From NCBI RefSeq assembly GCF_051903065.1, contig NZ_CP178438.1: a stretch of 64,000 nt of DNA. One strand, 5' to 3'. Below are positions 45,955 to 64,000 of the stretch, piece after piece. How positions within the stretch are numbered: position 1 is the first letter of the stretch; each line of letters starts with the position of its first letter. The translations under genes were made by a program, and so were the position numbers. A model generated the notes under the pieces. The model worked only from the letters and a program-made list of their open reading frames with translations, searched no databases and had not been told where the DNA came from. The stretch is from Escherichia coli. GTDB lineage: Bacteria; Pseudomonadota; Gammaproteobacteria; Enterobacterales; Enterobacteriaceae.

Positions 45955-47164
<1,210 letters not shown>

Positions 47165-47168
<4 letters not shown>

Positions 47169-47815
47169 ACCTCTGCTCCGGGTTTGATCAGCATCAGACC
47201 ACAGCCGAACGCGCGGCTTTTGCCATACCCCTGACTGAGACGTTGCAGAAATAACCCGGGATCGGTGACCGTAAGCATCCCCGTATAATCCACGCTACTG
47301 AACTGGATCAGTTGCCGGGAGTTTTCCCGCCGCAGTTGCTGTTGTCGGTAGGCATCAACCGAGGTATCCAGCAGTGTAAAACCGCTTCTCTCCCCCTGCG
47401 CTGCCAGCCAGTCCAGCGCCGCCTGTTGTTGATGCAACCAGACATCACGCCCTTCCGCCTGTCCCCTCACCTGCCGTTTCGCCTCCATCAGCAGATCGTG
47501 GCGCTTGCCCGCTTTACAAATTGTGGGATTCGCCCGCAGGTTGAAACAAAGGGATTGTCCGGTACGCAGCTCCGGAGCAAATGACCGGCATTCGATAGTG
47601 AAAGTTTCACTTTCCGCCGGGCGTTCCTGCGAGAGGACAAAAAAGCGAAACGCACCCTGAAGTTCCTCCCGACGATAAAGAAATTGCCTTTCTTTGCCGC
47701 CAGGGAAGAGATCCCACAGCCACTGATGCATCACATATTCACCGCGATCCACCAGATGCAGCAACTGCGCAGGCAAAAGCTGAGCGGTATGTAAGGTTAT
47801 TCTTGAGAGGTACAT
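47165..47815 (-). CDS. casE: Cas6e (CasE) crRNA endoribonuclease
   Basis: ORF 47165..47953; start placed at MYLSRITL (ATG 47815, AGGAGG RBS), 216 aa; C-terminal glycine-rich segment GYGKSRAFGCGLM. Confidence 0.88.
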
Positions 47816-48543
47816 GGTTCCTCCTTGCTGAGCCACGGCCCCTGATTGACGGTGCGTTCCCCAAACAGCCACTGCTGGCGATTTAAAGGAACATCCCGGC
47901 GGCGTAATATTTTGCTCACGACCAGGCCGTCGTGCTCCCCTTCCCACCAGCATTCATCCTGAAGTTTCGGGAGTGAGACTTTCAGGTCGTGGAAATGATC
48001 CTGATACTGTTGGTATGCGTTACGTAAAACATCAGACGCGTTGCCTTCGAGCAGTAACGGCGCAAGTGGTAATGCCAGCGGATGACTTTTTCGCCCCAGA
48101 TAAAGAGGAAAAACTGGATGGCGTAAACCGCCCTGCAACTGTTCGAGGCTGTAAGGCGCATCGGCTGTTGTTGCCACCGCCACCATCCACCAGGCGTCGG
48201 TGTAGTAGTCGCGCCGGGAGATAATCGCGCTCAGAAGATCAGAGTCGCTCAACTCTTCGCGACGGCTGAAATAACGCGCTTTGCGCACCTCTTTTGGCAT
48301 CTGGATCGTGTGATAATCCCGTGCCCAGCGCGGGTTACGGCTGGCGCAAACCACCAGTGAATAGTGGCGATTAAACGCGTTTAAGCGTTCGGTATCATCA
48401 CGCCGAATCCCTACCCCGGCAGCCAGCAGACCCAGCAATGCTGAGCGCGAAGGCAGTTCATGGGTATGACGCACTTCGCCGGGGGCATCGACGCCCCAGG
48501 ATGCCATTGGCCCATGAAGCTGAAAAATCAGATATTGGCTCAT
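47797..48543 (-). CDS. casD: Cas5e (CasD) Cascade subunit
   Basis: 248 aa; N-terminus MSQYLIFQLHGPMASWG. Confidence 0.88.
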   Translation of the reverse strand: MSQYLIFQLHGPMASWGVDAPGEVRHTHELPSRSALLGLLAAGVGIRRDDTERLNAFNRHYSLVVCASRNPRWARDYHTIQMPKEVRKARYFSRREELSDSDLLSAIISRRDYYTDAWWMVAVATTADAPYSLEQLQGGLRHPVFPLYLGRKSHPLALPLAPLLLEGNASDVLRNAYQQYQDHFHDLKVSLPKLQDECWWEGEHDGLVVSKILRRRDVPLNRQQWLFGERTVNQGPWLSKEEPCTSQE

Positions 48544-48553
48544 AAGCCGCCCC

Positions 48554-49609
48554 TTACGCGCAGATAAAGTCCAGTACGTCCTTCATGCTTCCCTGTTTGT
48601 TCATCACGTCAAAACTTGCGCATTCAGTCTTCTGTTCGTAGACCGTATTCATGTTTTCGCGAAGCGTTGTAATACGCTGCACCGCCACATCTAACTGACG
48701 GGTACCATTAATGGGTTCATAGAAAGCCGCCGCCAGAGAACGCGGTTGATCAGTGCCTTTTTCCGCCAGCGCCCAGGAGGCGTAGGCACGGCTGGCAAAG
48801 CTATTTTGTTTACCGGTTGGGGAAACTTTAAGCGCGGCTTCCGTAAAAGCGCGTATGGTCTGATTAGCTAACGCTTCGTCACCGCCGAGGTTTTCTACCA
48901 GCAGATCTTTATCAATGCAGATATAGGTGTAGAAAAGTGCTGAACCGAATCCGGTTTCTCCGAGATGCCCGGCACCGGCATCTTCAGAGGCCTGGCGCAA
49001 ATCATCAACGGCGGTGAAAAAATCATCTTCGACAATCGTTTCACTGACACCAAACGCATGCGCGACCTGGCAGGCGGCTTCAACATTAAACTCAGGTTTA
49101 TTCGCCAGCATACGACCAAACATAGCGATATCTACCGCTATACGGTCTTTACGTAACAACGCGAGATCTTCCTCTTTTGGCGCGCGCTTTTCTTCTGCCA
49201 GTTGATGGGCCAGCGCTTTTACGGCGTCAAATTCTGCCGGGCTGATATGAACTAATTGTTCAGTTTCGGCGTTAGTGAGCGGATCTTTTGGTTTTTTGTC
49301 GTTTTTAGCTTTCCCAAGATAATCTGCAATTTTTGCCGCCCATTCGATGGCTTTTTTCTCTTCGATTCCTTTCTCAATCAGGATAGTTGCCGCCTCACGC
49401 GCAATTCGCCCACTGCGAATACCAATATGGCCCGCCAGTGCCTGTTCAAAAAGTGCAGAAGTGCGCCACGCACGTTTCAGACTTTGTGAGGAAACGCGCA
49501 GACGCGTTGCACCACCCAGTACCACAGTTTTTGGCGCACCAGTATCATCACGGTTAAGGTTGGCAGCAGGGTAAGCGGTTAACAAATGAAGCTGAATAAA
49601 TGTTGTCAT
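48554..49609 (-). CDS. casC: Cas7e (CasC) Cascade backbone subunit
   Basis: 351 aa; N-terminus MTTFIQLHLLTAYPAANLNRDD. Confidence 0.9.
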   Translation of the reverse strand: MTTFIQLHLLTAYPAANLNRDDTGAPKTVVLGGATRLRVSSQSLKRAWRTSALFEQALAGHIGIRSGRIAREAATILIEKGIEEKKAIEWAAKIADYLGKAKNDKKPKDPLTNAETEQLVHISPAEFDAVKALAHQLAEEKRAPKEEDLALLRKDRIAVDIAMFGRMLANKPEFNVEAACQVAHAFGVSETIVEDDFFTAVDDLRQASEDAGAGHLGETGFGSALFYTYICIDKDLLVENLGGDEALANQTIRAFTEAALKVSPTGKQNSFASRAYASWALAEKGTDQPRSLAAAFYEPINGTRQLDVAVQRITTLRENMNTVYEQKTECASFDVMNKQGSMKDVLDFICA

Positions 49610-49620
49610 GAGATAGTCCT

Positions 49621-50160
49621 TTATTGATTTTGTTCGTTATCGGCGTCGCCAGCCTGGTAATATTCCAGCGCCCAGCGGATACGGATAAATTCGGTTGGCC
49701 GCTGCTGGCGGCGGTGATGATTGAGCAGGTCGTCGCTCTCCTGACACCAGCGGAAAATATCGTCTGCCAAAGAGATAAGATTGACGGAACCGTTTAATAA
49801 TTTGACTGCGCGTCGTAACTGGCGCAGTAATTCATCCGGCGTTTTTACTGCCGACAGGCAAGTAAAACGCCCCTCTGACATTACCGCCGCCAGCTGTGCG
49901 GCAAAAGGCTGCCGTTCATCAATGGCTTTAACATTGGCGGCAACGGCGGCGACCAGTGCCAGTGCGGTAAAACGCCACTCTTGTGCTTCAATTTTCCACA
50001 AAGTGTGGGTCTGCATCAGCAGAGAACGAAACCCTTCTGACAAGCAAACATCATTAACCGTTGTGCTACGCCGCAGACTGGCACGATTGCCGCGTTTAGC
50101 CTGCAACTCTTCGTGCCATTTACGCAGCGTGGCTTTGTGCCCGTCTTTTACAATACTCAT
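49621..50160 (-). CDS. casB: Cse2 (CasB) Cascade small subunit
   Basis: 179 aa; position between cse1 and cas7; 4-nt overlap with cse1 stop. Confidence 0.85.
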   Translation of the reverse strand: MSIVKDGHKATLRKWHEELQAKRGNRASLRRSTTVNDVCLSEGFRSLLMQTHTLWKIEAQEWRFTALALVAAVAANVKAIDERQPFAAQLAAVMSEGRFTCLSAVKTPDELLRQLRRAVKLLNGSVNLISLADDIFRWCQESDDLLNHHRRQQRPTEFIRIRWALEYYQAGDADNEQNQ

Positions 50161-51719
50161 TCAGCAGCCTCCTGCTTTTTCTCCCTGGCGGCTTTAGCAC
50201 TTTGCTTCTCCGCCGATGTTGTAAAATATTTTTTGCGCGCGGTCATGACGCGTTTTAAATCAACGGGCTCATAAGGATTGGTGAATACACGCTCGTCAAA
50301 ATCCTGACGCGAGAATAACCAAATCTCCTTATTCCATTTGCTGAGTAATTCATCCGCATCCTGACCTTCTTCAATTTGGCGCACTAACCTCAGGAAGCGA
50401 TGCTGAGTTTTGTTCCAGAAGTCGATATCCACAAAACTGAAATCACCCCGTGCACCTTTTGGATCGGAGAACCATGCTTCTTTCAATGCACTCCGTAACA
50501 GACTTAGAATGCGTGAAGCCGTTTGCGCAGCCAGCCGCAGTTTCGGTATCTGGCCTTCTTTTTTATTGAGCAGCAGCGGGAAACGGTGTTCGTACCAACA
50601 GCGGGCTTTCATGTTGTCGAAATCATAGCCAAATCCCCATAGGCCTACTTTTGCCTGCTTGAGACTGCTGGCATTAAAGAGTTTCACCACCAGAGCGGGA
50701 AGTTCCGTATTGTTTTCTGACTTACCCGTTTCGATAAGGCCTAACCAGTCGCGCCAAATTAAACCGCCTGGTTGTGGTTTAACTGAGTAAAACTCGCCAC
50801 CCTCTTTAAGTGGTACACGGTAAGGCGTTAATGGATGCTGCCACATGGCATAATTCGCACCGTAATTTTTGGTCGTCATCAGGCTCAGAAGCGCGTCGTC
50901 CTGCTCACCGCAAATATCGCAGTTGCCGACTGTCGTGGTATTAAAATCAATACGAATACGCCGCGGCATTCCCCAGTACGCCTGGAGTTTATTGACCTGA
51001 TCATCGGTTACCACCGCACCGGCCAGTTCGCTGGTACGCGTCGGGCCAAGCCAGGGGAAAACCAGATCGTCAAATTTTTTGGGTAGCGGTAAGTCGGCTT
51101 CATCCTGCGGCATCACGTTGAGCCACAGTTTGCGCCACAAGGGGGCTTGTTGATTGCCCTGATACTCCTGCAATTCAATCAGAGTCGTCATCGGCCCACC
51201 GCCGCGTAAACCGGTTCGGTAGCCTTTGCCGCCTGACGGTGCATTTAACTGTAGGGAGAACAGAGCTAACGCGGAACAATGAGGGCATACGTGTTCAGTC
51301 ACGCCACGCTTAATAAAGTGGTCTTTATTAAACTTCGTTGTTTGAGCGCCGGGAATCTCAGGCAGTAATGAAGCAACCTGAACTTTATCTCCCGTGAGCG
51401 CCTCGAAATCCTGCATAAATGAAGGGGAATCTGGCCCAAACTGGAAAGCATGTTCTAAAGACAGCAATGCTTCCCGTAGCTTTTCGGCTTCCAGTCCGTC
51501 TTGCCAGATATCATCCCAACGACCATGATTTTTGGGCGCGAAACTGGTTTGTAGTAGCCCCAGTAAAAACTGCCATGCTGCTCCCTGGAGATCTGCTCGT
51601 GGCGCAGCGATATCGACAACATTTTCATCAGCCAGATCGACTGGCGCCAGTTTGCCTGTCGTTCCGTCTTTAAAACGAACGGGCAACCACGGGGTTGTCA
51701 GAAGTGAAAACGAGTTCAT
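50157..51719 (-). CDS. casA: Cse1 (CasA) Cascade large subunit
   Basis: ORF 50157..51725; start preferred at MNSFSLLTTPWLPV (ATG 51719, 6-nt spacing from GAGAGG); 520 aa. Confidence 0.88.
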   Translation of the reverse strand: MNSFSLLTTPWLPVRFKDGTTGKLAPVDLADENVVDIAAPRADLQGAAWQFLLGLLQTSFAPKNHGRWDDIWQDGLEAEKLREALLSLEHAFQFGPDSPSFMQDFEALTGDKVQVASLLPEIPGAQTTKFNKDHFIKRGVTEHVCPHCSALALFSLQLNAPSGGKGYRTGLRGGGPMTTLIELQEYQGNQQAPLWRKLWLNVMPQDEADLPLPKKFDDLVFPWLGPTRTSELAGAVVTDDQVNKLQAYWGMPRRIRIDFNTTTVGNCDICGEQDDALLSLMTTKNYGANYAMWQHPLTPYRVPLKEGGEFYSVKPQPGGLIWRDWLGLIETGKSENNTELPALVVKLFNASSLKQAKVGLWGFGYDFDNMKARCWYEHRFPLLLNKKEGQIPKLRLAAQTASRILSLLRSALKEAWFSDPKGARGDFSFVDIDFWNKTQHRFLRLVRQIEEGQDADELLSKWNKEIWLFSRQDFDERVFTNPYEPVDLKRVMTARKKYFTTSAEKQSAKAAREKKQEAAE

Positions 51720-52115
51720 ACGCATCCTCTCGTAGAAAAGACCATCCCTGGTCGGTTGTCCATCACCATATTTTCAGATTTAGTTGGAGACTTAATCTGA
51801 GTCGGATAAAAGAAAAGACGTTGAATGTGATACGAAAATCGAACTTAGTTTGTCGTTTTGAAAGCAGACTTAGCACAAGTTGAAGCAAAAAAATCGACAA
51901 CATCGTAGTCCTCTTCACCGCAGCTTTTCACCGGTCACGAAAATACGCCTTGTAACGGTGTGACTCAACTCCGGATCCGGACATTATTTAAAATCTTTGT
52001 TTCTCATTAACTCATAGCAATTACCCATCTATCATAATCACAATAGCATTGATAAAATAAATCCATTCCCTGATTCTAGGGATTAACCAAGTTAGTGAGA
52101 TACAAAAATTGGTTC

Positions 52116-52144
52116 CTGTTCCCCGCGTCAGCGGGGATAAGCCC
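52116..52144 (+). repeat. Solitary CRISPR-repeat-like element in the cas3-cse1 intergenic region
   Basis: + strand CTGTTCCCCGCGTCAGCGGGGATAAGCCC matches the crRNA-sense repeat GTGTTCCCCGCGCCAGCGGGGATAAACCG at 25/29 with the stem intact; orientation is opposite to the array; followed by a perfect 10-bp hairpin at 52142-52165 that abuts the cas3 stop. Confidence 0.8.
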
Positions 52145-52169
52145 TGGCGTCATCCGACGCCAGGGCATC

Positions 52170-54869
52170 TCAATCAACCTTGCCAATCAATCCTTCCGTA
52201 GCCGAATACCCGCAGCTTTCGTCATCGGTGACTAAAATCACGTTTGCCATCTCCGGATCTTGCCGTTGTTCAATGCACCACTGCCTGAACGCTTCCCCTT
52301 CCAGTAAAGAAAATTCATCCCGATGTTTTTTCCACCAGCTTCGACGCACTCTGGCAACGCTCATTTCCCATGCGTGAGCACCGCTGGCATAAGGCTTCAC
52401 CACACCGTCAATACAGGTAGCCAGCCACAGGGAAACAGACTCTTCAGCCAGACGTGTCGACAGCTTTTCCGGGAGGTAATCGTTGATATTGGCGGCATAG
52501 CCGGGCCTGAAGTTCAGCATAAACTTTTTAGCCATTGCGCGATCGCAGTAATATTTGCCCACTTGCTCCTGCTCGCTGCGGGCAAATCCTTCCGGCATTA
52601 CCACGTCCTCACCGTAGACGGATTCAATAAGAAGCCGGGCTGCGTGTGGCATCTGAATAGCGCCTTGCTCACGCAATACTCGCTGCGTCAGCCAGATTCG
52701 CCCATGATCGGGGTAGACATATGCGCTGTTACGCATCGCACTACCAAACCATTCGTCACCCGGAGAGTCGTCCCAGACGGGGGCCAGAATCAGCAATTCA
52801 GGAGGGGAACGCTCGTCTTTTCCATCACGTTTTAACTGACCATTAATATCACGAATATGCCGTTGTAATCGCCCCGCTCGCTGGATCAGCAAATCAATGG
52901 GGGCCAGGTCGGAGATCATTTCGTCCAGGTCAATATCCACACTTTGCTCAATTACTTGTGTACAAACAATGACTTGAGATGATCTTTTTAAACTACAATT
53001 TTTACCAAAGCGTGCCAGCGTTTCCGTTTCAATTCGCTGGCGATCGCTAAAAGCAAAGCGGCTATGAAAAAGTGAAAGGCTGGAAGCAGGAATGACGCCG
53101 CGGGCAAGTAACTGACGATAAACCTTAATAGCGTCATCGACAGAATTCCGGATCCAGGCGATGCATTTCCCCTGACTTACCGCTGATTCGATACGCGCAA
53201 TACATTCTTGTTCGCTATGAAGCCAACCCACGCTCACGCTACGCTCAACGTCTTTGCGCGTCGCTACCCGGTGCGAATGCACATCGGATTTCGTGACATG
53301 CGTCAGCCAGGGGTAATCATCCTTTTCTAGGAACGGAGCTTCTTGCTGGCCCTCTGTGCCACGCGCAAAGGCGGCGACAAGTTTGTCGCGCTGCTGTTGA
53401 GATAACGTAGCAGAAAGCAAAATGACGCTGTTTCCGCCACGCACCTGTCGCTCAATCAACCCTTCAAGAATGTACGACATGTAAGCGTCACAGGCGTGGA
53501 TCTCATCAGCCAGCAGGATTTTGTTACTCAACCCCAGAAGCCGCAGATTATTATGTTTAAACGGCATCACTGCCATCATCGCCTGATCCAGCGTGCCGAC
53601 GCCAATTTCAGCCAGTAAAGCCTTCTTGTTACTGTCGGCAAACCAGGCTGCACATCCTTGACTGAACGCTTGTTCATCCGGTTCTTCTGACCCGACTAAA
53701 TCACCGGACCAGAGTGATTCATTAAAGCGTTCCATTAATGTACGGGCGCTGTGTGCCAGCACCAGGCTGGGGCGGGATTCTGGCGAAAAGAAAGCAAGCC
53801 AGGTTTTGACCAGCCGATCGTACATGGCATTGGCCGTTGCCATTGTTGGCAGGCCAAAAAACAAACCCTGAGCTTTATTCTCAGCCATCAACCTGTGCGC
53901 CAGGATAAGCGCCGCTTCTGTTTTACCTGCGCCAGTCACATCTTCCAGAATAAATAACTGTGGCCCTGGCTGGCTGATATCCAGATCCAGTACCTTTTGC
54001 TGTAATGGTGTCGGGTGCTCAATAAAAGGAAACAGCGTATTAATTCCGGTGAAAGGTGCGGTTTCTGCTTTTGGAGGAAAGACGGTTAAGGCGTTTTGAG
54101 CCTGAACTAAAGTTTTCTGCCAGTAATCTTTAATATTCATTGTCTGTGCGACGCGTGGAAAAAATCGCGTTGACGAACCCGTCCAGTCTGCGAGTACGAC
54201 TGTTGCAGAGATATACCAGGAAAGTTGTTTTAAAAGTTCAACGCCCTCGTCATCATCCCAGAATGTGGGAATCTCTATGAGCGGAAACAGTGACTTGATT
54301 TCAAGGAGAAAATCTCGTGCGGCAGCTTTGTCTTCAGGCAGGAAATTATCCAGTTCATCAATACGGTCAGGGGGCCGACCATGATGCCCGGTAGTCATGG
54401 GCATCCACATCGCTATTACACGTTTAAGTTTGCGAGTAGAGAGTGAAGAGGCAGGAAGCAATTCTTCGCATTCACTTAAATAATGATGCCACAACCAGTA
54501 GCCCAGCGTTGAATGAGAGATCTTTTCGTAATTCTTTCTTGCGCCTTCCGGAACCTTGAGTTGTGGGTGCAGGTAAAGTTGCTGAAATGAGCGGGCAAAT
54601 TTTCCAATATCGTGCCAGCACAACAACCAGGCGAAAAATTGAGCCGCCTGTTCCTTGTCAGAAATCCCTAATTGACGAAAATAATCAGCCAGCCCGAAGC
54701 AATTTCTTTTAACCATTAAATAGCCCATCGCGGCCACATCCAGCGAATGCCAGCAAAGAAGGTGATAGTCGTCACCCCCTTCTTTCTCGTCGCGTCGGGT
54801 TTTTCCCCAGAAATCAAAGAAAGTCACAATATTTTTATCCTTCAGTAAACTTAAAGGATATTTACGCAT
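52170..54869 (-). CDS. cas3: Cas3 HD nuclease / SF2 helicase (type I-E)
   Basis: 899 aa; N-terminal HD motifs (LLCWHSLDV, WHDIGKF), helicase Walker A GAGKTEAAL and DEIHA box; highly AT-rich upstream region. Confidence 0.92.
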   Translation of the reverse strand: MRKYPLSLLKDKNIVTFFDFWGKTRRDEKEGGDDYHLLCWHSLDVAAMGYLMVKRNCFGLADYFRQLGISDKEQAAQFFAWLLCWHDIGKFARSFQQLYLHPQLKVPEGARKNYEKISHSTLGYWLWHHYLSECEELLPASSLSTRKLKRVIAMWMPMTTGHHGRPPDRIDELDNFLPEDKAAARDFLLEIKSLFPLIEIPTFWDDDEGVELLKQLSWYISATVVLADWTGSSTRFFPRVAQTMNIKDYWQKTLVQAQNALTVFPPKAETAPFTGINTLFPFIEHPTPLQQKVLDLDISQPGPQLFILEDVTGAGKTEAALILAHRLMAENKAQGLFFGLPTMATANAMYDRLVKTWLAFFSPESRPSLVLAHSARTLMERFNESLWSGDLVGSEEPDEQAFSQGCAAWFADSNKKALLAEIGVGTLDQAMMAVMPFKHNNLRLLGLSNKILLADEIHACDAYMSYILEGLIERQVRGGNSVILLSATLSQQQRDKLVAAFARGTEGQQEAPFLEKDDYPWLTHVTKSDVHSHRVATRKDVERSVSVGWLHSEQECIARIESAVSQGKCIAWIRNSVDDAIKVYRQLLARGVIPASSLSLFHSRFAFSDRQRIETETLARFGKNCSLKRSSQVIVCTQVIEQSVDIDLDEMISDLAPIDLLIQRAGRLQRHIRDINGQLKRDGKDERSPPELLILAPVWDDSPGDEWFGSAMRNSAYVYPDHGRIWLTQRVLREQGAIQMPHAARLLIESVYGEDVVMPEGFARSEQEQVGKYYCDRAMAKKFMLNFRPGYAANINDYLPEKLSTRLAEESVSLWLATCIDGVVKPYASGAHAWEMSVARVRRSWWKKHRDEFSLLEGEAFRQWCIEQRQDPEMANVILVTDDESCGYSATEGLIGKVD

Positions 54870-55061
54870 ATTTTAAAAATTATCTGTGATATATATCAGC
54901 CAATAAAACATTTATATTGTGAATAAATTTATGATTTTCATTTGAAATTCATAATAATAAATAGAGACAATATATTCACATAAAAAATATAAATTTAAAA
55001 AAGGGTGCAGGAGACCAAACCATCACAATTCAATACGCGGGGTTTTACCCCCGCGTGGTGG

Positions 55062-55214
55062 CTACTTCTTCGATTCGTAAGCGAGAACAGCCTTAAACTC
55101 CATACCACGTTCTCTGATACTCAACTCACACAACGAGTCACCTACCATCAGCGTGAATCCCAGTACTGTACAACACAGTACGATGATTGCCACAAGGGCA
55201 TATTTTGTCAGCAT
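55062..55214 (-). CDS. Hok/Gef-family type I toxin (50 aa), HokE-like
   Basis: Not in ORF track (too short). ATG 55214 after GGGAGG; translation [50 protein letters not shown] with the Hok signature SLCE..R.G.E..A.LAYES.K; stem-loop GCGGGGGTAAAACCCCGC just downstream (55036-55055). Confidence 0.7.
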
Positions 55215-59798: not shown

Positions 59799-60113
59799 GC
59801 GTCGTTATGTTCCAGTAAGCAAAGCTGTTTCTGCGCCCTGTCAGCGCCCATAAAACAGAAGAAAAGGTAAGGTTAACGGGGTGAACGGTGTGGATTAAAG
59901 ACGGGATAGCGATAACTAATAACCAAATCGACTAACCTGTTTTAGCAATAGTCTTTAACAACAAAATAGATTAACCAACCTAATGAAAAACAAATGAATT
60001 TAGCCAATCATTAAGATAAATCAGCGATTTTGCGCAACAAAGTCGTTTTAGATAATGCGAAAAAACAGCCTTTCCGGTACTCTACGGCGGTTTTATCGTC
60101 CTGTAGAGAAATT

Positions 60114-60479
60114 ATGATGTCCACCACGTTATTTAAAGATTTCACCTTCGAAGCCGCTCACCGCTTACCACACGTCCCGGAAGGGCATAAATGTGGTCGC
60201 CTGCACGGGCATTCCTTTATGGTGCGACTGGAAATTACCGGGGAAGTCGATCCGCATACGGGCTGGATTATCGATTTCGCTGAACTGAAAGCGGCGTTTA
60301 AGCCAACTTATGAGCGCCTCGATCACCATTATCTCAATGATATTCCAGGTCTGGAAAACCCGACCAGCGAAGTTTTAGCAAAATGGATTTGGGATCAGGT
60401 TAAACCCGTTGTGCCGCTGTTAAGTGCGGTGATGGTAAAAGAAACCTGCACCGCTGGTTGTATCTATCGCGGCGAATGA
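60114..60479 (+). CDS. queD: 6-carboxy-5,6,7,8-tetrahydropterin synthase (queuosine biosynthesis)
   Basis: ORF 60030..60479 begins with TTG; start placed at ATG 60114 ([18 protein letters not shown]), 121 aa; zinc motif HGH. Confidence 0.9.
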
Positions 60480-60556
60480 TAAGAGTGTGTCGGCGGTCAA
60501 TTTCCCTTAAGTAACGCTATGTTAGGGTGTTGTGTTCAGGATATCTGGGGCATGAC

Positions 60557-61828
60557 ATGGAAGACGACTGCGACATTATTATTATTGGTGCCGGTATTGC
60601 AGGCACCGCTTGCGCGTTACGCTGCGCGCGAGCGGGTTTATCCGTTTTGTTACTGGAACGCGCTGAAATCCCCGGCAGCAAAAATCTTTCCGGCGGGCGG
60701 TTATATACCCATGCACTCGCGGAACTCCTCCCTCAGTTTCATCTGACCGCGCCTCTTGAACGACGCATCACTCACGAAAGCCTTTCCCTGTTAACGCCGG
60801 ATGGCGCAACGACGTTTTCCAGCTTACAGCCCGGCGGTGAATCCTGGAGTGTATTACGTGCACGGTTCGATCCGTGGCTGGTTGCCGAAGCCGAAAAAGA
60901 AGGTGTCGAATGTATCCCCGGAGCGACGGTGGATGCACTGTATGAAGAAAACGGCAGAGTGTGTGGTGTCATTTGTGGTGACGATATTCTCCGCGCCCGT
61001 TATGTGGTGCTGGCAGAAGGTGCCAACAGCGTCCTGGCTGAACGTCACGGATTAGTGACTCGTCCTGCTGGCGAAGCGATGGCGTTGGGGATCAAAGAAG
61101 TGCTGTCGCTGGAAACATCCGCTATTGAAGAACGTTTTCATCTGGAGAATAACGAAGGCGCAGCGTTGCTGTTCAGCGGCGGAATCTGTGATGACTTACC
61201 CGGCGGCGCATTTCTTTATACTAATCAACAAACGCTCTCGTTAGGGATTGTTTGCCCGCTCTCTTCCCTTACGCAAAGTCGTGTTCCGGCAAGCGAGCTG
61301 CTGGCTCGCTTTAAAACGCATCCGGCAGTTCGCCCGCTTATCAAAAACACGGAATCACTGGAGTATGGTGCGCATCTGGTGCCAGAAGGTGGCTTGCACA
61401 GTATGCCGGTGCAATACGCCGGTAACGGCTGGCTGCTGGTGGGCGATGCGTTGCGCAGTTGCGTCAATACCGGAATTTCTGTGCGCGGCATGGATACGGC
61501 GCTAACTGGCGCGCAGGCGGCGGCACAAACACTGATAAGCGCCTGCCAGCACTGCGAGCCGCAAAATCTGTTTCCGCTTTATCATCACAACGTAGAGCGC
61601 AGCCTGCTGTGGGATGTTCTACAGCGTTATCAGCATGTTCCGGCGCTTTTGCAACGCCCGGGATGGTACCGTACGTGGCCTGCGTTAATGCAGGATATTT
61701 CCCGCGATTTATGGGATCAGGGTGATAAACCTGTTCCACCGCTGCGCCAGTTACTCTGGCGTCATTTACGTCGTCATGGCTTGTGGCATCTGGCGGGCGA
61801 TGTTATCAGGAGTCTGCGATGTCTGTAG
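60557..61828 (+). CDS. ygcN: FAD-dependent oxidoreductase, FixC/ETF-QO-like
   Basis: ORF 60527..61828; start at MEDDCDIIIIGAGIAG (Rossmann GxGxxG), 423 aa. Confidence 0.82.
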   Translation: MEDDCDIIIIGAGIAGTACALRCARAGLSVLLLERAEIPGSKNLSGGRLYTHALAELLPQFHLTAPLERRITHESLSLLTPDGATTFSSLQPGGESWSVLRARFDPWLVAEAEKEGVECIPGATVDALYEENGRVCGVICGDDILRARYVVLAEGANSVLAERHGLVTRPAGEAMALGIKEVLSLETSAIEERFHLENNEGAALLFSGGICDDLPGGAFLYTNQQTLSLGIVCPLSSLTQSRVPASELLARFKTHPAVRPLIKNTESLEYGAHLVPEGGLHSMPVQYAGNGWLLVGDALRSCVNTGISVRGMDTALTGAQAAAQTLISACQHCEPQNLFPLYHHNVERSLLWDVLQRYQHVPALLQRPGWYRTWPALMQDISRDLWDQGDKPVPPLRQLLWRHLRRHGLWHLAGDVIRSLRCL

Positions 61829-62079
61829 CCCGTAATCTCTGGCGCGCTGCTGATGCGCCGCACATTGTTCCGGCTGACTCCGTTGAGCGCCAGACGGTAC
61901 AACGGTTGATTAACGCTTGTCCGGCTGGTCTTTTTTCGCTCACACCGGGAGGTGACTTACGCGTTGATTATCACGGCTGCCTGGAGTGTGGCACCTGCCG
62001 TTTGCTGTGCGACGAATCAACACTACAACAGTGGCGCTATCCGCCTTCCGGATTCGGCATCACCTACCGTTTTGGATAA
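61819..62079 (+). CDS. ygcO: FixX-like ferredoxin
   Basis: ORF 61783..62079; start at MSVARNL (86 aa); Cys motif CLECGTCRLLC; overlaps ygcN end. Confidence 0.78.
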   Translation: MSVARNLWRAADAPHIVPADSVERQTVQRLINACPAGLFSLTPGGDLRVDYHGCLECGTCRLLCDESTLQQWRYPPSGFGITYRFG

Positions 62080-62095
62080 ATAATAAGGATAATTT

Positions 62096-62671
62096 ATGCC
62101 CCTCTTACACCTGCTCCGCCAGAATCCGGTGATTGCTGCCGTTAAAGATAATGCCAGCCTGCAACTGGCAATCGATTCTGAATGCCAATTTATTTCCGTG
62201 TTGTACGGCAATATCTGCACCATCAGTAATATCGTTAAAAAGATTAAGAACGCCGGGAAATATGCTTTTATTCATGTTGATTTGCTGGAAGGCGCGTCAA
62301 ATAAAGAAGTCGTTATTCAGTTTTTGAAACTGGTGACCGAGGCGGACGGCATTATCAGTACCAAAGCCTCAATGTTGAAAGCGGCAAGAGCGGAAGGTTT
62401 TTTCTGTATTCATCGCCTGTTTATTGTTGATTCGATTTCGTTTCACAACATTGATAAGCAAGTTGCGCAATCGAATCCGGATTGTATTGAGATCCTGCCA
62501 GGCTGCATGCCCAAAGTGCTGGGCTGGGTGACGGAAAAAATCCGCCAACCGCTGATTGCTGGCGGGCTGGTATGCGATGAAGAAGATGCGCGTAATGCGA
62601 TTAACGCGGGTGTCGTGGCGCTTTCCACCACGAATACTGGGGTCTGGACGTTAGCGAAAAAATTGCTTTGA
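62096..62671 (+). CDS. ygcP: GlpP-like antiterminator-family protein
   Basis: 191 aa; position downstream of ygcO. Confidence 0.75.
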   Translation: MPLLHLLRQNPVIAAVKDNASLQLAIDSECQFISVLYGNICTISNIVKKIKNAGKYAFIHVDLLEGASNKEVVIQFLKLVTEADGIISTKASMLKAARAEGFFCIHRLFIVDSISFHNIDKQVAQSNPDCIEILPGCMPKVLGWVTEKIRQPLIAGGLVCDEEDARNAINAGVVALSTTNTGVWTLAKKLL

Positions 62672-62706
62672 CGGAATAATCGTAACGAATTGAATTTGTG
62701 TCATTT

Positions 62707-62790
62707 GTAGGCTGCACGCCACATCCGACATTCAGCGCCTGATGCGACGCTTGACGCGTCTTATCAGGCCTACAAGTCCCCAGGCCAGAA
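62707..62790. repeat. REP/BIME elements between convergent ygcP and ygcQ
   Basis: GCCTGATGCGACGCTTGACGCGTCTTATCAGGCCTACAAG plus flanking partial copies. Confidence 0.7.
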
Positions 62791-62817
62791 CCGTAGGCAG
62801 GATCATCCGGCAACACG

Positions 62818-63678
62818 TTATTGGCAATCTGCGTGAATGTTTGTCACCAGTGCCTCCAGCACCACTTTCCAGTCATCAACCACGCCAACATCTGCCTGTG
62901 AAAATACCGCTGCGCTGGCGTCATGATTAATCGCCACCACAAACTTGCTATTGCATACGCCCGCCATTAACGCTGCTGCGCCAGAAGCGCCAACAACAAT
63001 ACACACCTCAGGTGCCAGCAGATGTCCGGAAATACCAATCACTTTTTCAGCATCAACGCCACCGTTCATCACTCGCGCCCGACTGTAGCCCACTTCGGCT
63101 CCCAGCTTTTCTGCCAGCATAGCGATTTCCTGGTTATCTGCCACTCCGCCCTGCCCCACCACCAGCACCCATCTGGCCTCAGCTAATGGGTCGCGAGTAA
63201 CATTTTTCAGATCCTCTGTGCTAACCAGCCAGTCGGGAAGCGCACCTGGGACTATGTTCAGTTGCTGCATACCAGAGGGCAACGTGGCATTTTTATCTGT
63301 TCCCGCCTGGCGCGCCAGGGAAAGACATAGCGGGCGTTTTTCTGTTTGCAGCGTCGCCGTTAGCGCATTTCCCCAGTGGGATTTGCGCACGCTTACGGTT
63401 GGAATATCTAACGAAGTCACCTGGCAGATGCTTGCACCATGTAAACGCCAGGCCAGCCGGGTCGACAGTTCATCGCCAAACGTTCCCGGCGGAAAGAGAA
63501 CAACGTTCGCAGGCGTTCGCTGCCACTGTTCCACCAGCGCATCCAGCACCTGTTCCACCACTACGGGCTGTGGTTCTATTTGCCAGTGCGCCAGGGTACA
63601 ACCGCTGAAATCCTGCGCCGCCAGCCAGCCCGCTAATGCGGCATTATCCTGATTTATTGTCACAATTGCGATATTCAT
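62818..63678 (-). CDS. ygcQ: Electron transfer flavoprotein alpha-subunit-like (FixB-like)
   Basis: ORF 62818..63711; start at MNIAIVTINQ (286 aa). Confidence 0.8.
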   Translation of the reverse strand: MNIAIVTINQDNAALAGWLAAQDFSGCTLAHWQIEPQPVVVEQVLDALVEQWQRTPANVVLFPPGTFGDELSTRLAWRLHGASICQVTSLDIPTVSVRKSHWGNALTATLQTEKRPLCLSLARQAGTDKNATLPSGMQQLNIVPGALPDWLVSTEDLKNVTRDPLAEARWVLVVGQGGVADNQEIAMLAEKLGAEVGYSRARVMNGGVDAEKVIGISGHLLAPEVCIVVGASGAAALMAGVCNSKFVVAINHDASAAVFSQADVGVVDDWKVVLEALVTNIHADCQ

Positions 63679-64000
63679 GGCTGCATCCTTTGGCGTAAAT
63701 AGTCCTGCCATAGCTTTTGCGCTTTTTCTGCTACCGTTTGCCCATCAATCAGCGTCGCTCCGCGTCGTTGCTCTGCTCTTGCCAGTTGCAGACACTGCAT
63801 CGCTGGCAATTCGGCAGCAACAGTTTTACGGATAATTTCCGCTTTCCCCGCAGCCATTCGCTGGCGCATTCCCGGTACTGGCAAGGCCACTTCACCGCAC
63901 TGGCGCACGGCAATCACCGCAGGCAAGCGAATCCGACAACAGCGCAGCCCATGTTCAGTACGCTGTTCGAGGGTGATAAACGGCGCGTCGAGAGTGAAAC
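63675..64000 (-). CDS. ygcR: Electron transfer flavoprotein beta-subunit-like (FixA-like); C-terminal part only, start outside window
   Basis: Stop at 63675 overlaps ygcQ start; ORF-track start at 63926 is a TTG, so the real N-terminus is beyond position 64000. Confidence 0.7.
   Translation of the reverse strand, partial: FTLDAPFITLEQRTEHGLRCCRIRLPAVIAVRQCGEVALPVPGMRQRMAAGKAEIIRKTVAAELPAMQCLQLARAEQRRGATLIDGQTVAEKAQKLWQDYLRQRMQP

Follow-up and report, generated by a model that had tools for sequence, protein, structure and literature searches.

What do the genes downstream of queD in Escherichia coli move electrons for, and what switches them on? We addressed this question in a stretch of 64,000 nucleotides of an E. 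coli chromosome (contig NZ_CP178438.1; hereafter the window), whose end holds ygcN, ygcO, ygcP, ygcQ and part of ygcR. The original prediction for this stretch saw in the four redox genes a FixABCX-like electron-transfer flavoprotein (ETF) cluster, with the GlpP-like gene ygcP between them. We propose, with a probability of roughly 60%, that the region is the electron-disposal arm and the YgcP-operated RNA switch of a mobile ten-gene catabolic cassette. The systems involved are of known kinds, an ETF with an ETF:quinone oxidoreductase (ETF-QO) and GlpP-type antitermination, here in an uncharacterized member with some variant features.

The unit has ten genes, ordered ygcE-yqcE / ygcWUSRQ / ygcPON. 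Its four redox genes are split between ygcNOP on the plus strand and the convergent ygcWUSRQ on the minus strand, with ygcR and ygcQ last in the latter. For genes past the window end we used the longer record of the chromosome NZ_AP045789.1 (L001), where the cassette continues with ygcS, encoding a major facilitator superfamily (MFS) transporter, ygcU (FAD-linked oxidase), ygcW (short-chain dehydrogenase/reductase, SDR), the divergent yqcE (MFS) and ygcE (FGGY kinase), followed by a CRISPR array and queE. Among contigs with YgcQ relatives, all ten genes recur in unchanged order in Klebsiella michiganensis, Yokenella, a metagenomic enterobacterium and “Enterobacteriaceae bacterium Kacie_13.” In the last of these, where YgcQ is only 42% identical, the cassette lies in a different chromosomal neighborhood; it therefore moves as a block.

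Which parts of the cassette travel together over longer distances? A table of presence and identity over 80 YgcP-related genome loci, retrieved through YgcP, reveals a core made of YgcP, YgcW, YgcU, YgcE and a transporter. This core is found in Enterobacterales, Vibrionaceae, Listeria, Bacillaceae, Clostridia, Negativicutes, Enterococcus, Streptomyces and one alphaproteobacterium, every complete cassette has a YgcP-like gene, and YgcU and YgcW retain 58-79% identity between E. coli and Gram-positives. The four redox genes co-occur or are jointly absent across loci, YgcN and YgcO being found only alongside YgcQ and YgcR and only in Enterobacterales. Within this one gene cluster (window 60557-64000 and L001 14558-25274) the two parts evolve at very different rates. 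Identity to Citrobacter and Klebsiella is 56-78% for YgcQ, YgcR, YgcN and YgcO and 92-97% for YgcP, YgcW and YgcU (95-97% for YgcP and YgcW, against 56-62% for YgcQ). E. coli genomes themselves differ by 6-14% in YgcO, YgcQ and YgcR, against 99-100% identity in YgcU. Within Escherichia, the ratio of nonsynonymous to synonymous substitution rates (dN/dS) is 0.14-0.20 for ygcQ, 0.19-0.29 for ygcR, 0.17-0.42 for ygcO and 0.07-0.16 for ygcN, and 0.00-0.05 for ygcU, ygcW, ygcP and ygcE. The electron-transfer arm is under purifying selection, far weaker than that on the core. In the same 80-locus table, ETF-bearing cassettes occur mostly in anaerobes or facultative anaerobes and ETF-free ones mostly in aerobes, a host distribution that would fit a role of the ETF in disposing of electrons when oxygen cannot be used.

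How could such a unit be controlled? YgcP matches the PF04309 profile (G3P_antiterm) with an E value of 1.4e-62 over its full length (residues 12-184, profile positions 1-173 of 173), and its solved relatives are the GlpP-like proteins 3kts (1e-27) and 1vkf (8e-15), both of which we take to be TIM-barrel-like. In Citrobacter, Klebsiella and Raoultella its identity is 96-97%, against 56-62% for YgcQ, and in Clostridium and other Clostridia, Sporomusa, Vibrio and Photobacterium it still reaches about 60%. Beside these distant ygcP genes stand homologs of YgcW, YgcU and YgcE, often with ETF beta and alpha, and with a BCCT or MFS transporter. Hence, the original prediction was right on the position of ygcP between the redox genes, but the gene is no odd insertion: it is the best conserved of the set and probably the regulator of the cassette.

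The putative target of YgcP lies in the spacer between ygcW and yqcE, about 4.2 kb past the window end, where two mirror-image leader elements face outward (Table 1; NC_000913.3 2900274-2900591). Each consists of a stem (P1) of 6 bp with a loop of about 19 nt, overlapping a terminator. The stems are GUUACC...GGUAAC in the ygcW leader and AUUACU...AGUAAU in the yqcE leader, and both loops carry the purine-rich motif AGAG-N(3-5)-(U/A)GAGAAA. The 3' arm of P1, together with the 3' part of the loop, serves as the 5' arm of the terminator. On the ygcW side, directly 5' of the gene and on its sense strand, the terminator-like hairpin has a 19-bp stem, a 4-nt loop, a tract of nine uridines and a folding z-score of -5.8; the second, mirror-image element before yqcE was shown by an alignment of the spacer from five genera. 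P1 alone folds with -6.7 and -1.4 kcal/mol in the two leaders and the terminators with -31 and -21 kcal/mol. P1 is thus far weaker than the terminator, and a stabilizing factor is therefore needed. As in GlpP-type systems, both operons have a terminator-bearing leader just downstream of the promoter.

A profile derived from 14 leaders gave, at E<0.01, 92 full-length hits in 52 loci, and 90 of the 92 lie within about 150 nt upstream of homologs of ygcW (46), yqcE (39), ygcE (3) or ygcU (2). In the E. coli record it finds only the two leaders, with none in the 64-kb window, and inspection of the 77-nt queD-ygcN spacer revealed no leader before ygcN. In Clostridium and Sporomusa the element separates the promoter from the SDR gene, and in Vibrio and Pantoea a copy stands before each of the two divergent operons. 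No hit was obtained in 29 of the 80 YgcP-related loci. Five of these contigs end before the control region and five are from Listeria, where a variant leader (GUUGCU/AGCGAC), just under the profile threshold, can be seen by eye. Most of the others (Blautia, Lachnospiraceae and similar) have YgcP relatives that are 46-51% identical and no cassette, and probably belong to other regulons. Counting the Listeria variant, the leader motif accompanies ygcP wherever the cassette is present.

The pairing of P1 is conserved as a structure. Among 87 distinct leaders the six core pairs are 92-100% paired (91.8% of cells over the seven pairs counted), neither this pairing nor the covariation is reached by any of 500 shuffles, and pairing drops sharply when the register is slid. 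Three pairs show double changes, GC to AU or the reverse in 27 sequences, UA/CG in 20 and AU/GC in 3, counts in which many changes are inherited and not independent; the first core pair is repeatedly AU, in Sporomusa, in a Syntrophomonadaceae genome and in a spirochaete. These counts concern P1 only, because the MAFFT alignment misplaces two leader types by one column on the 3' arm of the terminator. A motif-first scan of metagenomes, which tests the association with the cassette and not with YgcP (30 of the 94 loci are long enough to include ygcP), gave 94 sites: 90 are beside homologs of cassette genes, one is beside a YgcP-like gene, and the remaining three lack a terminator and look like chance matches. 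In Rfam 15 no family reaches its threshold at the leaders of E. coli or of seven distant loci. The Bacillus subtilis SurA small RNA (sRNA) matches the whole spacer (L001 22204-22478, minus strand) with 26.9 bits against a gathering score of 100 (E value 5.6e-4). We treated this match as due to chance; it is probably driven by AT-rich sequence and hairpins.

Transcripts of these leaders appear already to have been seen. A differential RNA-seq catalog for E. coli K-12 contains ecr2774, from the ygcW strand (2898315-2898388, 73 nt), and ecr2775, from the yqcE strand (2898527-2898590, 63 nt), and northern-blot probing of an sRNA upstream of yqcE is indicated by the legend of figure 7 in that work (PMC4681348). 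The start codons in NC_000913.3 are at 2900273 for ygcW and 2900592 for yqcE. With an offset of about 1978 nt, taken as accurate to about 2 nt, from one K-12 sequence version to the other, the two RNAs begin at the first bases of P1 and end at the two U-tracts. On these coordinates we read ecr2774 and ecr2775, listed as candidate sRNAs, as terminated leaders. Centered about 40 nt upstream of the 5' end of the ygcW leader is a perfect CRP consensus, TGTGATTACGATCACA, and a near-perfect second site, TGTGAGAGTAATCACG, lies about 43 nt upstream of that of the yqcE leader. Previous studies found TGTGATTACGATCACA, between ygcW and yqcE, as a CRP site by chromatin immunoprecipitation sequencing in enterotoxigenic E. 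coli (PMC4287617) and predicted it with PhyloScan (PMC1794230), and yqcE-ygcE are listed as CRP-activated (PMC8085971).

The closest parallel is found in B. subtilis, where GlpP with glycerol-3-phosphate activates three promoters, each with a GlpP site and a terminator in the 5' untranslated region (PMC9604022). YgcP shares the PF04309 family with this GlpP, which acts on the glpD, glpFK and glpTQ leaders, although the solved GlpP-like proteins are only distant relatives of the YgcP clade. The B. subtilis glpD leader, GGUC-[CUGAGAUGAGGAGA]-GACC, runs into the terminator stem and parallels the E. coli GUUACC-[AGAGAUAAUGAGAAA]-GGUAAC; the shared layout and the similar GAG-rich loop were judged by eye. 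In both systems the inducer is presumed to be the product of a kinase. The regulons differ: glpD, glpFK and glpTQ in B. subtilis, and here an SDR, an alkyl-DHAP synthase (AGPS)-like flavoenzyme, an ETF, a transporter and an FGGY kinase. We suggest that YgcP is most likely a ligand-dependent antiterminator of the ygcW and yqcE leaders. The two divergent promoters have a CRP site each, and both the ygcW operon, including ygcR and ygcQ, and yqcE-ygcE open with a leader of 63-73 nt. Without inducer, transcription would end at the leader terminator and yield the published short RNAs. By analogy with GlpP and glycerol-3-phosphate, the ligand of YgcP would be an intermediate of the pathway phosphorylated by the kinase YgcE, and liganded YgcP would then bind P1 and its loop, block formation of the terminator and allow read-through.

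Where would the electrons go? Domain searches, which the original prediction had offered both as its check and as the result that could overturn it, supported all five of its families at levels far above chance, and these genes and families are existing annotation, already known. YgcN scores with the NCBIfam families FixC (2e-108) and YdiS-type PRK10015 (2e-113) below their equivalog cut-offs, as a third paralog should; BLASTP gives it 42% identity to YdiS and 41% to FixC. Its Pfam domains are DAO and ETFQO_UQ-bd (residues 176-273, 30.6 bits against a cut-off of 27.7), i.e., the FAD and quinone-binding domains of a 2GMH-type ETF-QO, and its best solved relative is the FixC subunit of Thermotoga maritima (7koe_C, 4e-57), followed by pig ETF-QO (2gmh, 1e-18). 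YgcN lacks an in-chain [4Fe-4S] domain (423 aa against 584 in 2gmh, with only residues 3-142 aligning in the best stretch), and the cluster-binding cysteines are on the separate protein YgcO. We predict YgcN to be the catalytic subunit of an ETF-QO. YgcO matches NCBIfam FixX (1e-23) and T. maritima EtfX (7koe_D, 2e-13), with 48% identity to FixX and 47% to YdiT (BLASTP). It has five cysteines, C34-P and C54-x2-C57-x2-C60-x3-C64, enough for one [4Fe-4S] cluster. The first of the two cysteine sets of EtfX is missing, and E. coli FixX and YdiT have the same reduction, all three following the single-cluster pattern C-x19-C-x2-C-x2-C. Two [4Fe-4S] clusters have been reported for the FixX of Azotobacter vinelandii.

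The ETF pair is more divergent. YgcQ matches Pfam ETF_alpha (PF00766, 1.3e-16) and ETF (3.6e-6), and ETF alpha chains in the PDB at about 1e-22 (5ow0_A, 5e-22; human 1efv_A, 8e-22), and is 30-38% identical over partial lengths to YdiR and FixB (BLASTP). Its FAD-binding domain is present and the Ser-Arg of the flavin site is kept. At the position of the ETF alpha signature, which we take to be G-[IV]-S-G-x-[IV]-Q-H as in PROSITE, YgcQ reads GASGAAALMAG and has lost the Q-H: FixB and YdiR have SGQIQH there, human ETF SGAIQH, and the whole YgcQ clade, Firmicutes included, SGAAA[LF] or SGTGAF. The YgcQ of Escherichia, Klebsiella and Yokenella (284-286 aa) also misses about 30 residues of the N-terminal domain relative to the orthologs of Kacie_13, Vibrio, Sporomusa and Clostridium (316-318 aa). 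The assignment of YgcR is the weakest of the five. Its in-window part (107 residues) alone has no Pfam match, and the full-length protein matches NCBIfam ETF beta (1.8e-11) and, in the PDB, 1efp_B (3.5e-11), then 5ow0_B and 1efv_B; it is 32% identical to FixA over just 90 residues (BLASTP). Its motif is GCQSSEGQNGQTP, against one ending in QVG in FixA, YdiQ and an LctB-like subunit, and the YgcR clade reads NGQTP or NGKTP. Ranked first among solved relatives are non-bifurcating ETF beta chains for YgcR and the bifurcating LctB and CarD for E. coli FixA. YgcQ and YgcR thus have the parts of a heterodimeric ETF, an alpha subunit with the PF00766 FAD domain and an ETF-family beta subunit. They probably form a distinct, non-bifurcating ETF subfamily with an altered flavin environment, a call that depends on our own alignments, on the PDB rankings and on which residues are taken to define the site. 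On these sequence comparisons, “FixAB-like” is for YgcR and YgcQ a matter of resemblance, not of membership.

What would feed this chain? Against solved structures, YgcU is closest to alkyl-DHAP synthase (9e-40), followed by glycolate oxidase (5e-26), LctD (1.5e-22) and D-lactate dehydrogenase (1.7e-17). Its R262, Y398 and H438-440 align with Arg419, Tyr578 and His615-617 of AGPS (4bby), residues that we take to be catalytic there. The AGPS-type Arg, Tyr and HHH loop are invariant in the seven YgcU orthologs examined (7/7), whereas co-located GlcD/LctD-type oxidases read SEHG and are without the Arg and Tyr segments. In Enterobacterales, where ygcS is inserted, as well as in Vibrio, Clostridia, Negativicutes, Syntrophomonadaceae and one alphaproteobacterium, the genes run in the order ygcU-ETFbeta-ETFalpha. 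Because of this conserved order, and because a second oxidase is present in only four loci, YgcU is the best candidate for the ETF donor. Electrons would probably flow from YgcU to YgcRQ, then to YgcNO and on to quinone. YgcU, with its AGPS-like active site, would hand electrons to the heterodimeric flavoprotein YgcR/YgcQ, and YgcN/YgcO would re-oxidize it and reduce the quinone pool, in an ordinary, non-bifurcating flow from ETF to ETF-QO.

Several known systems resemble parts of this chain. E. coli FixABCX, in the cai-fix locus, and YdiQRST, in the ydiO/fadK locus, comprise the same four protein families as YgcRQNO. However, fixABCX and ydiQRST are each one co-directional run, whereas the ygc genes do not make up one operon: they lie in two convergent operons together with a regulator. 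YgcQ and YgcR are about 30% identical to FixB and FixA over partial lengths, and the alpha Q-H and beta QVG kept in FixAB and YdiQR are not kept in YgcQ and YgcR. What stands of the predicted FixABCX-like module is therefore the presence of all four families; the two convergent operons, the atypical ETF and the place of these genes as the accessory arm of a larger cassette do not fit it. The bifurcating ETF-menaquinone oxidoreductase EtfABCX of T. maritima (7KOE) includes the best solved relatives of YgcN and YgcO, but EtfX has two cysteine sets against one in YgcO, and YgcR and YgcQ match the ETF chains of 7koe (1e-6 and 1e-14) more poorly than non-bifurcating ETFs. AGPS (4BBY, 2UUU) is the best solved relative of YgcU, with the same PF01565 and PF02913 fold and the Arg/Tyr/HHH match. 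Still, YgcU (484 aa) is without the long N-terminal region of the 658-aa AGPS and belongs to a catabolic cassette whose other products include a kinase, an SDR and, in many cases, an ETF, whereas AGPS needs no external electron acceptor. The mammalian and Pseudomonas chain of D-2-hydroxyglutarate dehydrogenase, ETF and ETF-QO, and LctBCD, follow the same logic, a PF01565/PF02913 flavoenzyme donating to an ETF encoded beside it, and LctD, LctB and LctC are among the PDB matches of YgcU, YgcR and YgcQ. The active-site motifs of YgcU are nevertheless AGPS-type, not the GlcD-type of these dehydrogenase-ETF chains, and the ygc quinone reductase is of the two-protein FixC/FixX type, in contrast to the single-chain ETF-QO with its built-in cluster.

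Could the same observations be explained otherwise? The closest solved relatives of YgcP, 3kts and 1vkf, being presumably TIM-barrel-like, YgcP could be an enzyme of the pathway, with the leaders working without it as metabolite riboswitches or trans-acting sRNAs; their short RNAs were indeed reported as candidate sRNAs (PMC4681348). Yet the element is tiny, its 6-bp stem and loop of about 19 nt leaving no space for a ligand pocket, and no Rfam family matches it. It is placed directly before orthologous operons, in both orientations and in several phyla, a YgcP-like gene is present in every complete cassette, and for B. subtilis GlpP, whose leaders share this layout, antitermination is established by experiment (PMC9604022). 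We regard leaders acting without YgcP as distinctly improbable. A decaying or redundant ETF arm in Escherichia, with intact genes that contribute little and a YgcU that uses another acceptor, is somewhat easier to defend, and we consider it unlikely. It would account for the low identity of YgcQ, YgcR, YgcN and YgcO to their Citrobacter and Klebsiella counterparts (56-78%, against 92-97% for YgcP, YgcW and YgcU), for dN/dS values of up to 0.42, for the N-terminal deletion and the lost signature Q-H of YgcQ, and for the absence of all four genes from several relatives. But dN/dS is well below 1 for all four genes, their open reading frames are intact, the locus is retained in about 94% of complete E. 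coli genomes, and the four genes are gained or lost as a set with their stop/start overlaps preserved. The SGAAA[LF] motif, moreover, is also found in Firmicute orthologs and is thus an old property of the clade, not a recent decay.

The redox partners could also be read differently. The identical four-subunit composition, and the fact that the best solved relatives of YgcN and YgcO are the FixC and EtfX subunits of the bifurcating T. maritima EtfABCX, would suit a true FixABCX/EtfABCX complex in which NADH reduces both quinone and a low-potential ferredoxin or flavodoxin. We find this very improbable, since YgcR is nearest to the non-bifurcating 1efp_B, 5ow0_B and 1efv_B whereas FixA is nearest to LctB and CarD, YgcR and its orthologs carry NGQTP or NGKTP in place of the QVG of FixA, YdiQ and an LctB-like subunit (a motif reading that depends in part on published ETF classifications), YgcO has one cluster where T. 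maritima EtfX has two, and gene order ties the ETF to a substrate dehydrogenase. Might the ETF pair then serve a different dehydrogenase, a GlcD/LctD-type second oxidase in Firmicutes and an unlinked enzyme in E. coli? In Clostridium, Sporomusa and Geosporobacter the ETF genes are indeed flanked by ygcU and a GlcD-type oxidase gene, enzymes of the GlcD family are known to donate to ETFs, and the LctBCD structure 7qh2 is among the matches. However, the second oxidase occurs in only four ETF-bearing loci and is lacking in Vibrio, Syntrophomonadaceae, Ancalomicrobiaceae and all Enterobacterales, lineages in which the ygcU-ETFbeta-ETFalpha adjacency nevertheless holds. We rejected the GlcD-type oxidase as the ETF partner on distribution and gene order, and rate this arrangement as the least probable of all. 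As a separate observation, an LctBCD-like set is present in Clostridium sediminicola (L008 422-3909), whose cassette has a second ETF pair with an alpha subunit bearing an N-terminal ferredoxin domain, and GlcD/LctD-type oxidases also occur at L010 14954-16495 and L051 2348-3826. This suggests that in Firmicutes with such a set the pathway yields a 2-hydroxy acid such as lactate.

Our proposal of an electron-disposal arm and a YgcP-operated switch should be weighed against several points. AGPS itself catalyzes no net redox reaction, which is awkward beside a dedicated electron acceptor. The ETF pair is optional: it is missing from the cassettes of Halobacillus, Listeria, Streptomyces, Pantoea/Erwinia, Serratia proteamaculans and Ewingella, and YgcU therefore does not strictly need an ETF. 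YgcQ, YgcR, YgcN and YgcO are 5-15 times less constrained than the core (dN/dS of 0.07-0.42 against 0.00-0.05), and YgcQ, which is without the conserved Q-H beside the flavin and part of the N-terminal domain, may be impaired or altered in function. On the RNA side, the B. subtilis glpD leader escapes the ygc leader profile, the likeness being architectural only. The binding of YgcP to the leaders is suggested only indirectly, by co-occurrence and family membership, by the covariation of P1 and by its weakness on its own, and the co-occurrence is partly by design, the genome loci having been fetched through YgcP.

Which compound feeds the cassette? The original prediction had held that no substrate was established and had pointed to sugar-type genes outside the window. 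Both statements hold: MFS transporters, an SDR and an FGGY kinase adjoin, our literature search found no paper assigning a substrate or function, and a full-text search found no functional study of ygcN/O/P/Q/R/S/U/W, yqcE or ygcE. A paper of March 2026 names YgcU just “FAD-binding oxidoreductase.” The best solved relatives of YgcE are the autoinducer-2 kinase LsrK and glycerol kinases, and YgcW is an SDR like KduD or gluconate-5-dehydrogenase. The substrate could be a small polyol, plausibly a C1-substituted glycerol, because the cassette combines a glycerol-kinase-like kinase, an SDR, a regulator of a glycerol-3-phosphate-sensing family, a flavoenzyme of a family that binds derivatives of dihydroxyacetone phosphate (DHAP), and transporters. 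The latter vary. E. coli has two MFS proteins, and Vibrio, Clostridium, Sporomusa, Halobacillus and Salibacterium have BCCT proteins, encoded within the cassette in Halobacillus and Salibacterium (L063 4237-5829; L066 8161-9810), with one copy of the leader motif directly before the BCCT gene in Salibacterium. The cassette of Enterococcus raffinosus (L073 11524-14858) has an OpuA/OpuC-type ATP-binding cassette system with an OpuAC binding protein. Hence, the substrate may carry a quaternary-ammonium-type group in several lineages.

One could go further and see in the cassette a cross-phylum pathway for C1-substituted glycerols, e.g., glyceryl ethers such as deacylated betaine-lipid head groups. 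YgcE would phosphorylate the free primary hydroxyl, giving a glycerol-3-phosphate analog sensed by YgcP, YgcW would oxidize C2 to a substituted DHAP, and YgcU would break off the C1 substituent by flavin chemistry, with the electrons passing to YgcRQ/NO without oxygen. This would fit because of the glycerol-kinase-like kinase, the glycerol-3-phosphate-type sensor, the AGPS active site and the betaine-type transporters of halophile, marine and enterococcal hosts. A search for literature on this enzyme combination or on betaine-lipid catabolism found nothing relevant, and we offer the pathway as a speculation that is rather unlikely to be right as it stands.

The features of the locus are collected in Table 1. 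The open reading frame list and the RefSeq annotation both agree with the coordinates and genes of the original prediction. Positions 60000-64000 are 100% identical to the E. coli chromosome NZ_AP045789.1, and this query is at least 80% covered in 5091 of 5426 complete E. coli genomes (about 94%; megablast). The 4-kb query matches a median of 4 places per E. coli genome, because repetitive extragenic palindromes and bacterial interspersed mosaic elements (REP/BIME) fill the ygcP/ygcQ spacer. These palindromes are not specific to the system and mark the ends of both operons; at about 62737-62769 they give a weak, sub-threshold Rfam match to the REP-derived naRNA4 family. The cassette is bracketed by CRISPR loci and by queD and queE: a complete type I-E CRISPR-Cas operon (cas3, casA-E, cas1, cas2) with a Hok/Gef toxin gene lies upstream of cysHIJ, and a second CRISPR locus is the array between ygcE and queE. 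YgcS has 469 aa here against 445 aa in K-12 MG1655 (NC_000913.3 2896533-2897870), reflecting the choice of start or a 5' difference.

Table 1. Features of the ygc locus. Coordinates are window positions unless marked L001; overlaps are between stop and start of adjacent genes.
Feature	Coordinates	Strand	Description
CRISPR-Cas operon	about 46000-55214 (L001 1-9215)		Type I-E, with Hok/Gef toxin gene
queD	60117-60479	+	From open reading frame list and RefSeq annotation
ygcN	60557-61828	+	FixC/YdiS-like FAD protein with ETF-QO-type quinone-binding domain
ygcO	61819-62079	+	FixX-like ferredoxin; 10-nt overlap with ygcN
ygcP	62096-62671	+	GlpP-family (PF04309) protein
ygcP/ygcQ spacer	62672-62817 (146 nt)		Between convergent genes; REP/BIME-type palindromes GCCTGATGCGACGC...GCGTCTTATCAGGCCTACA
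ygcQ	62818-63678	-	Divergent ETF alpha, 286 aa; 4-nt overlap with ygcR
ygcR, 3' part (last 326 nt)	63675-64000, runs past the window	-	Divergent ETF beta; full gene L001 17676-18455, 259 aa
ygcS	L001 18433-19842		MFS transporter; 23-nt overlap with ygcR
ygcW leader	L001 22193-22266	-	P1 and terminator
ygcW-side terminator-like hairpin	L001 22246-22205	-	Directly 5' of ygcW
yqcE leader	L001 22401-22472	+	P1 and terminator
CRISPR array	L001 25912-26428		Second CRISPR locus

Finally, what does this mean for E. coli and for the family? The ygc genes are a still-unassigned part of the E. coli K-12 genome and one of only three ETF-type systems in the species. Our analysis describes them as a ten-gene functional unit, in which an ancient conserved core is set apart from a fast-evolving, optional electron-transfer arm. 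It adds a cis-regulatory RNA absent from Rfam, through which two published candidate sRNAs can be reread as terminated leaders. With its AGPS-like active site, YgcU limits the range of reactions to be considered. The leader element gives YgcP a concrete predicted function, and fusions of the leaders to reporters would be a direct screen for the inducer, and hence for the substrate. If YgcP acts on the leaders, this would be, to our knowledge, the only E. coli antitermination system of the GlpP type so far described. The YgcP system would then be a case of GlpP-type antitermination with a recognizable RNA motif across phyla.

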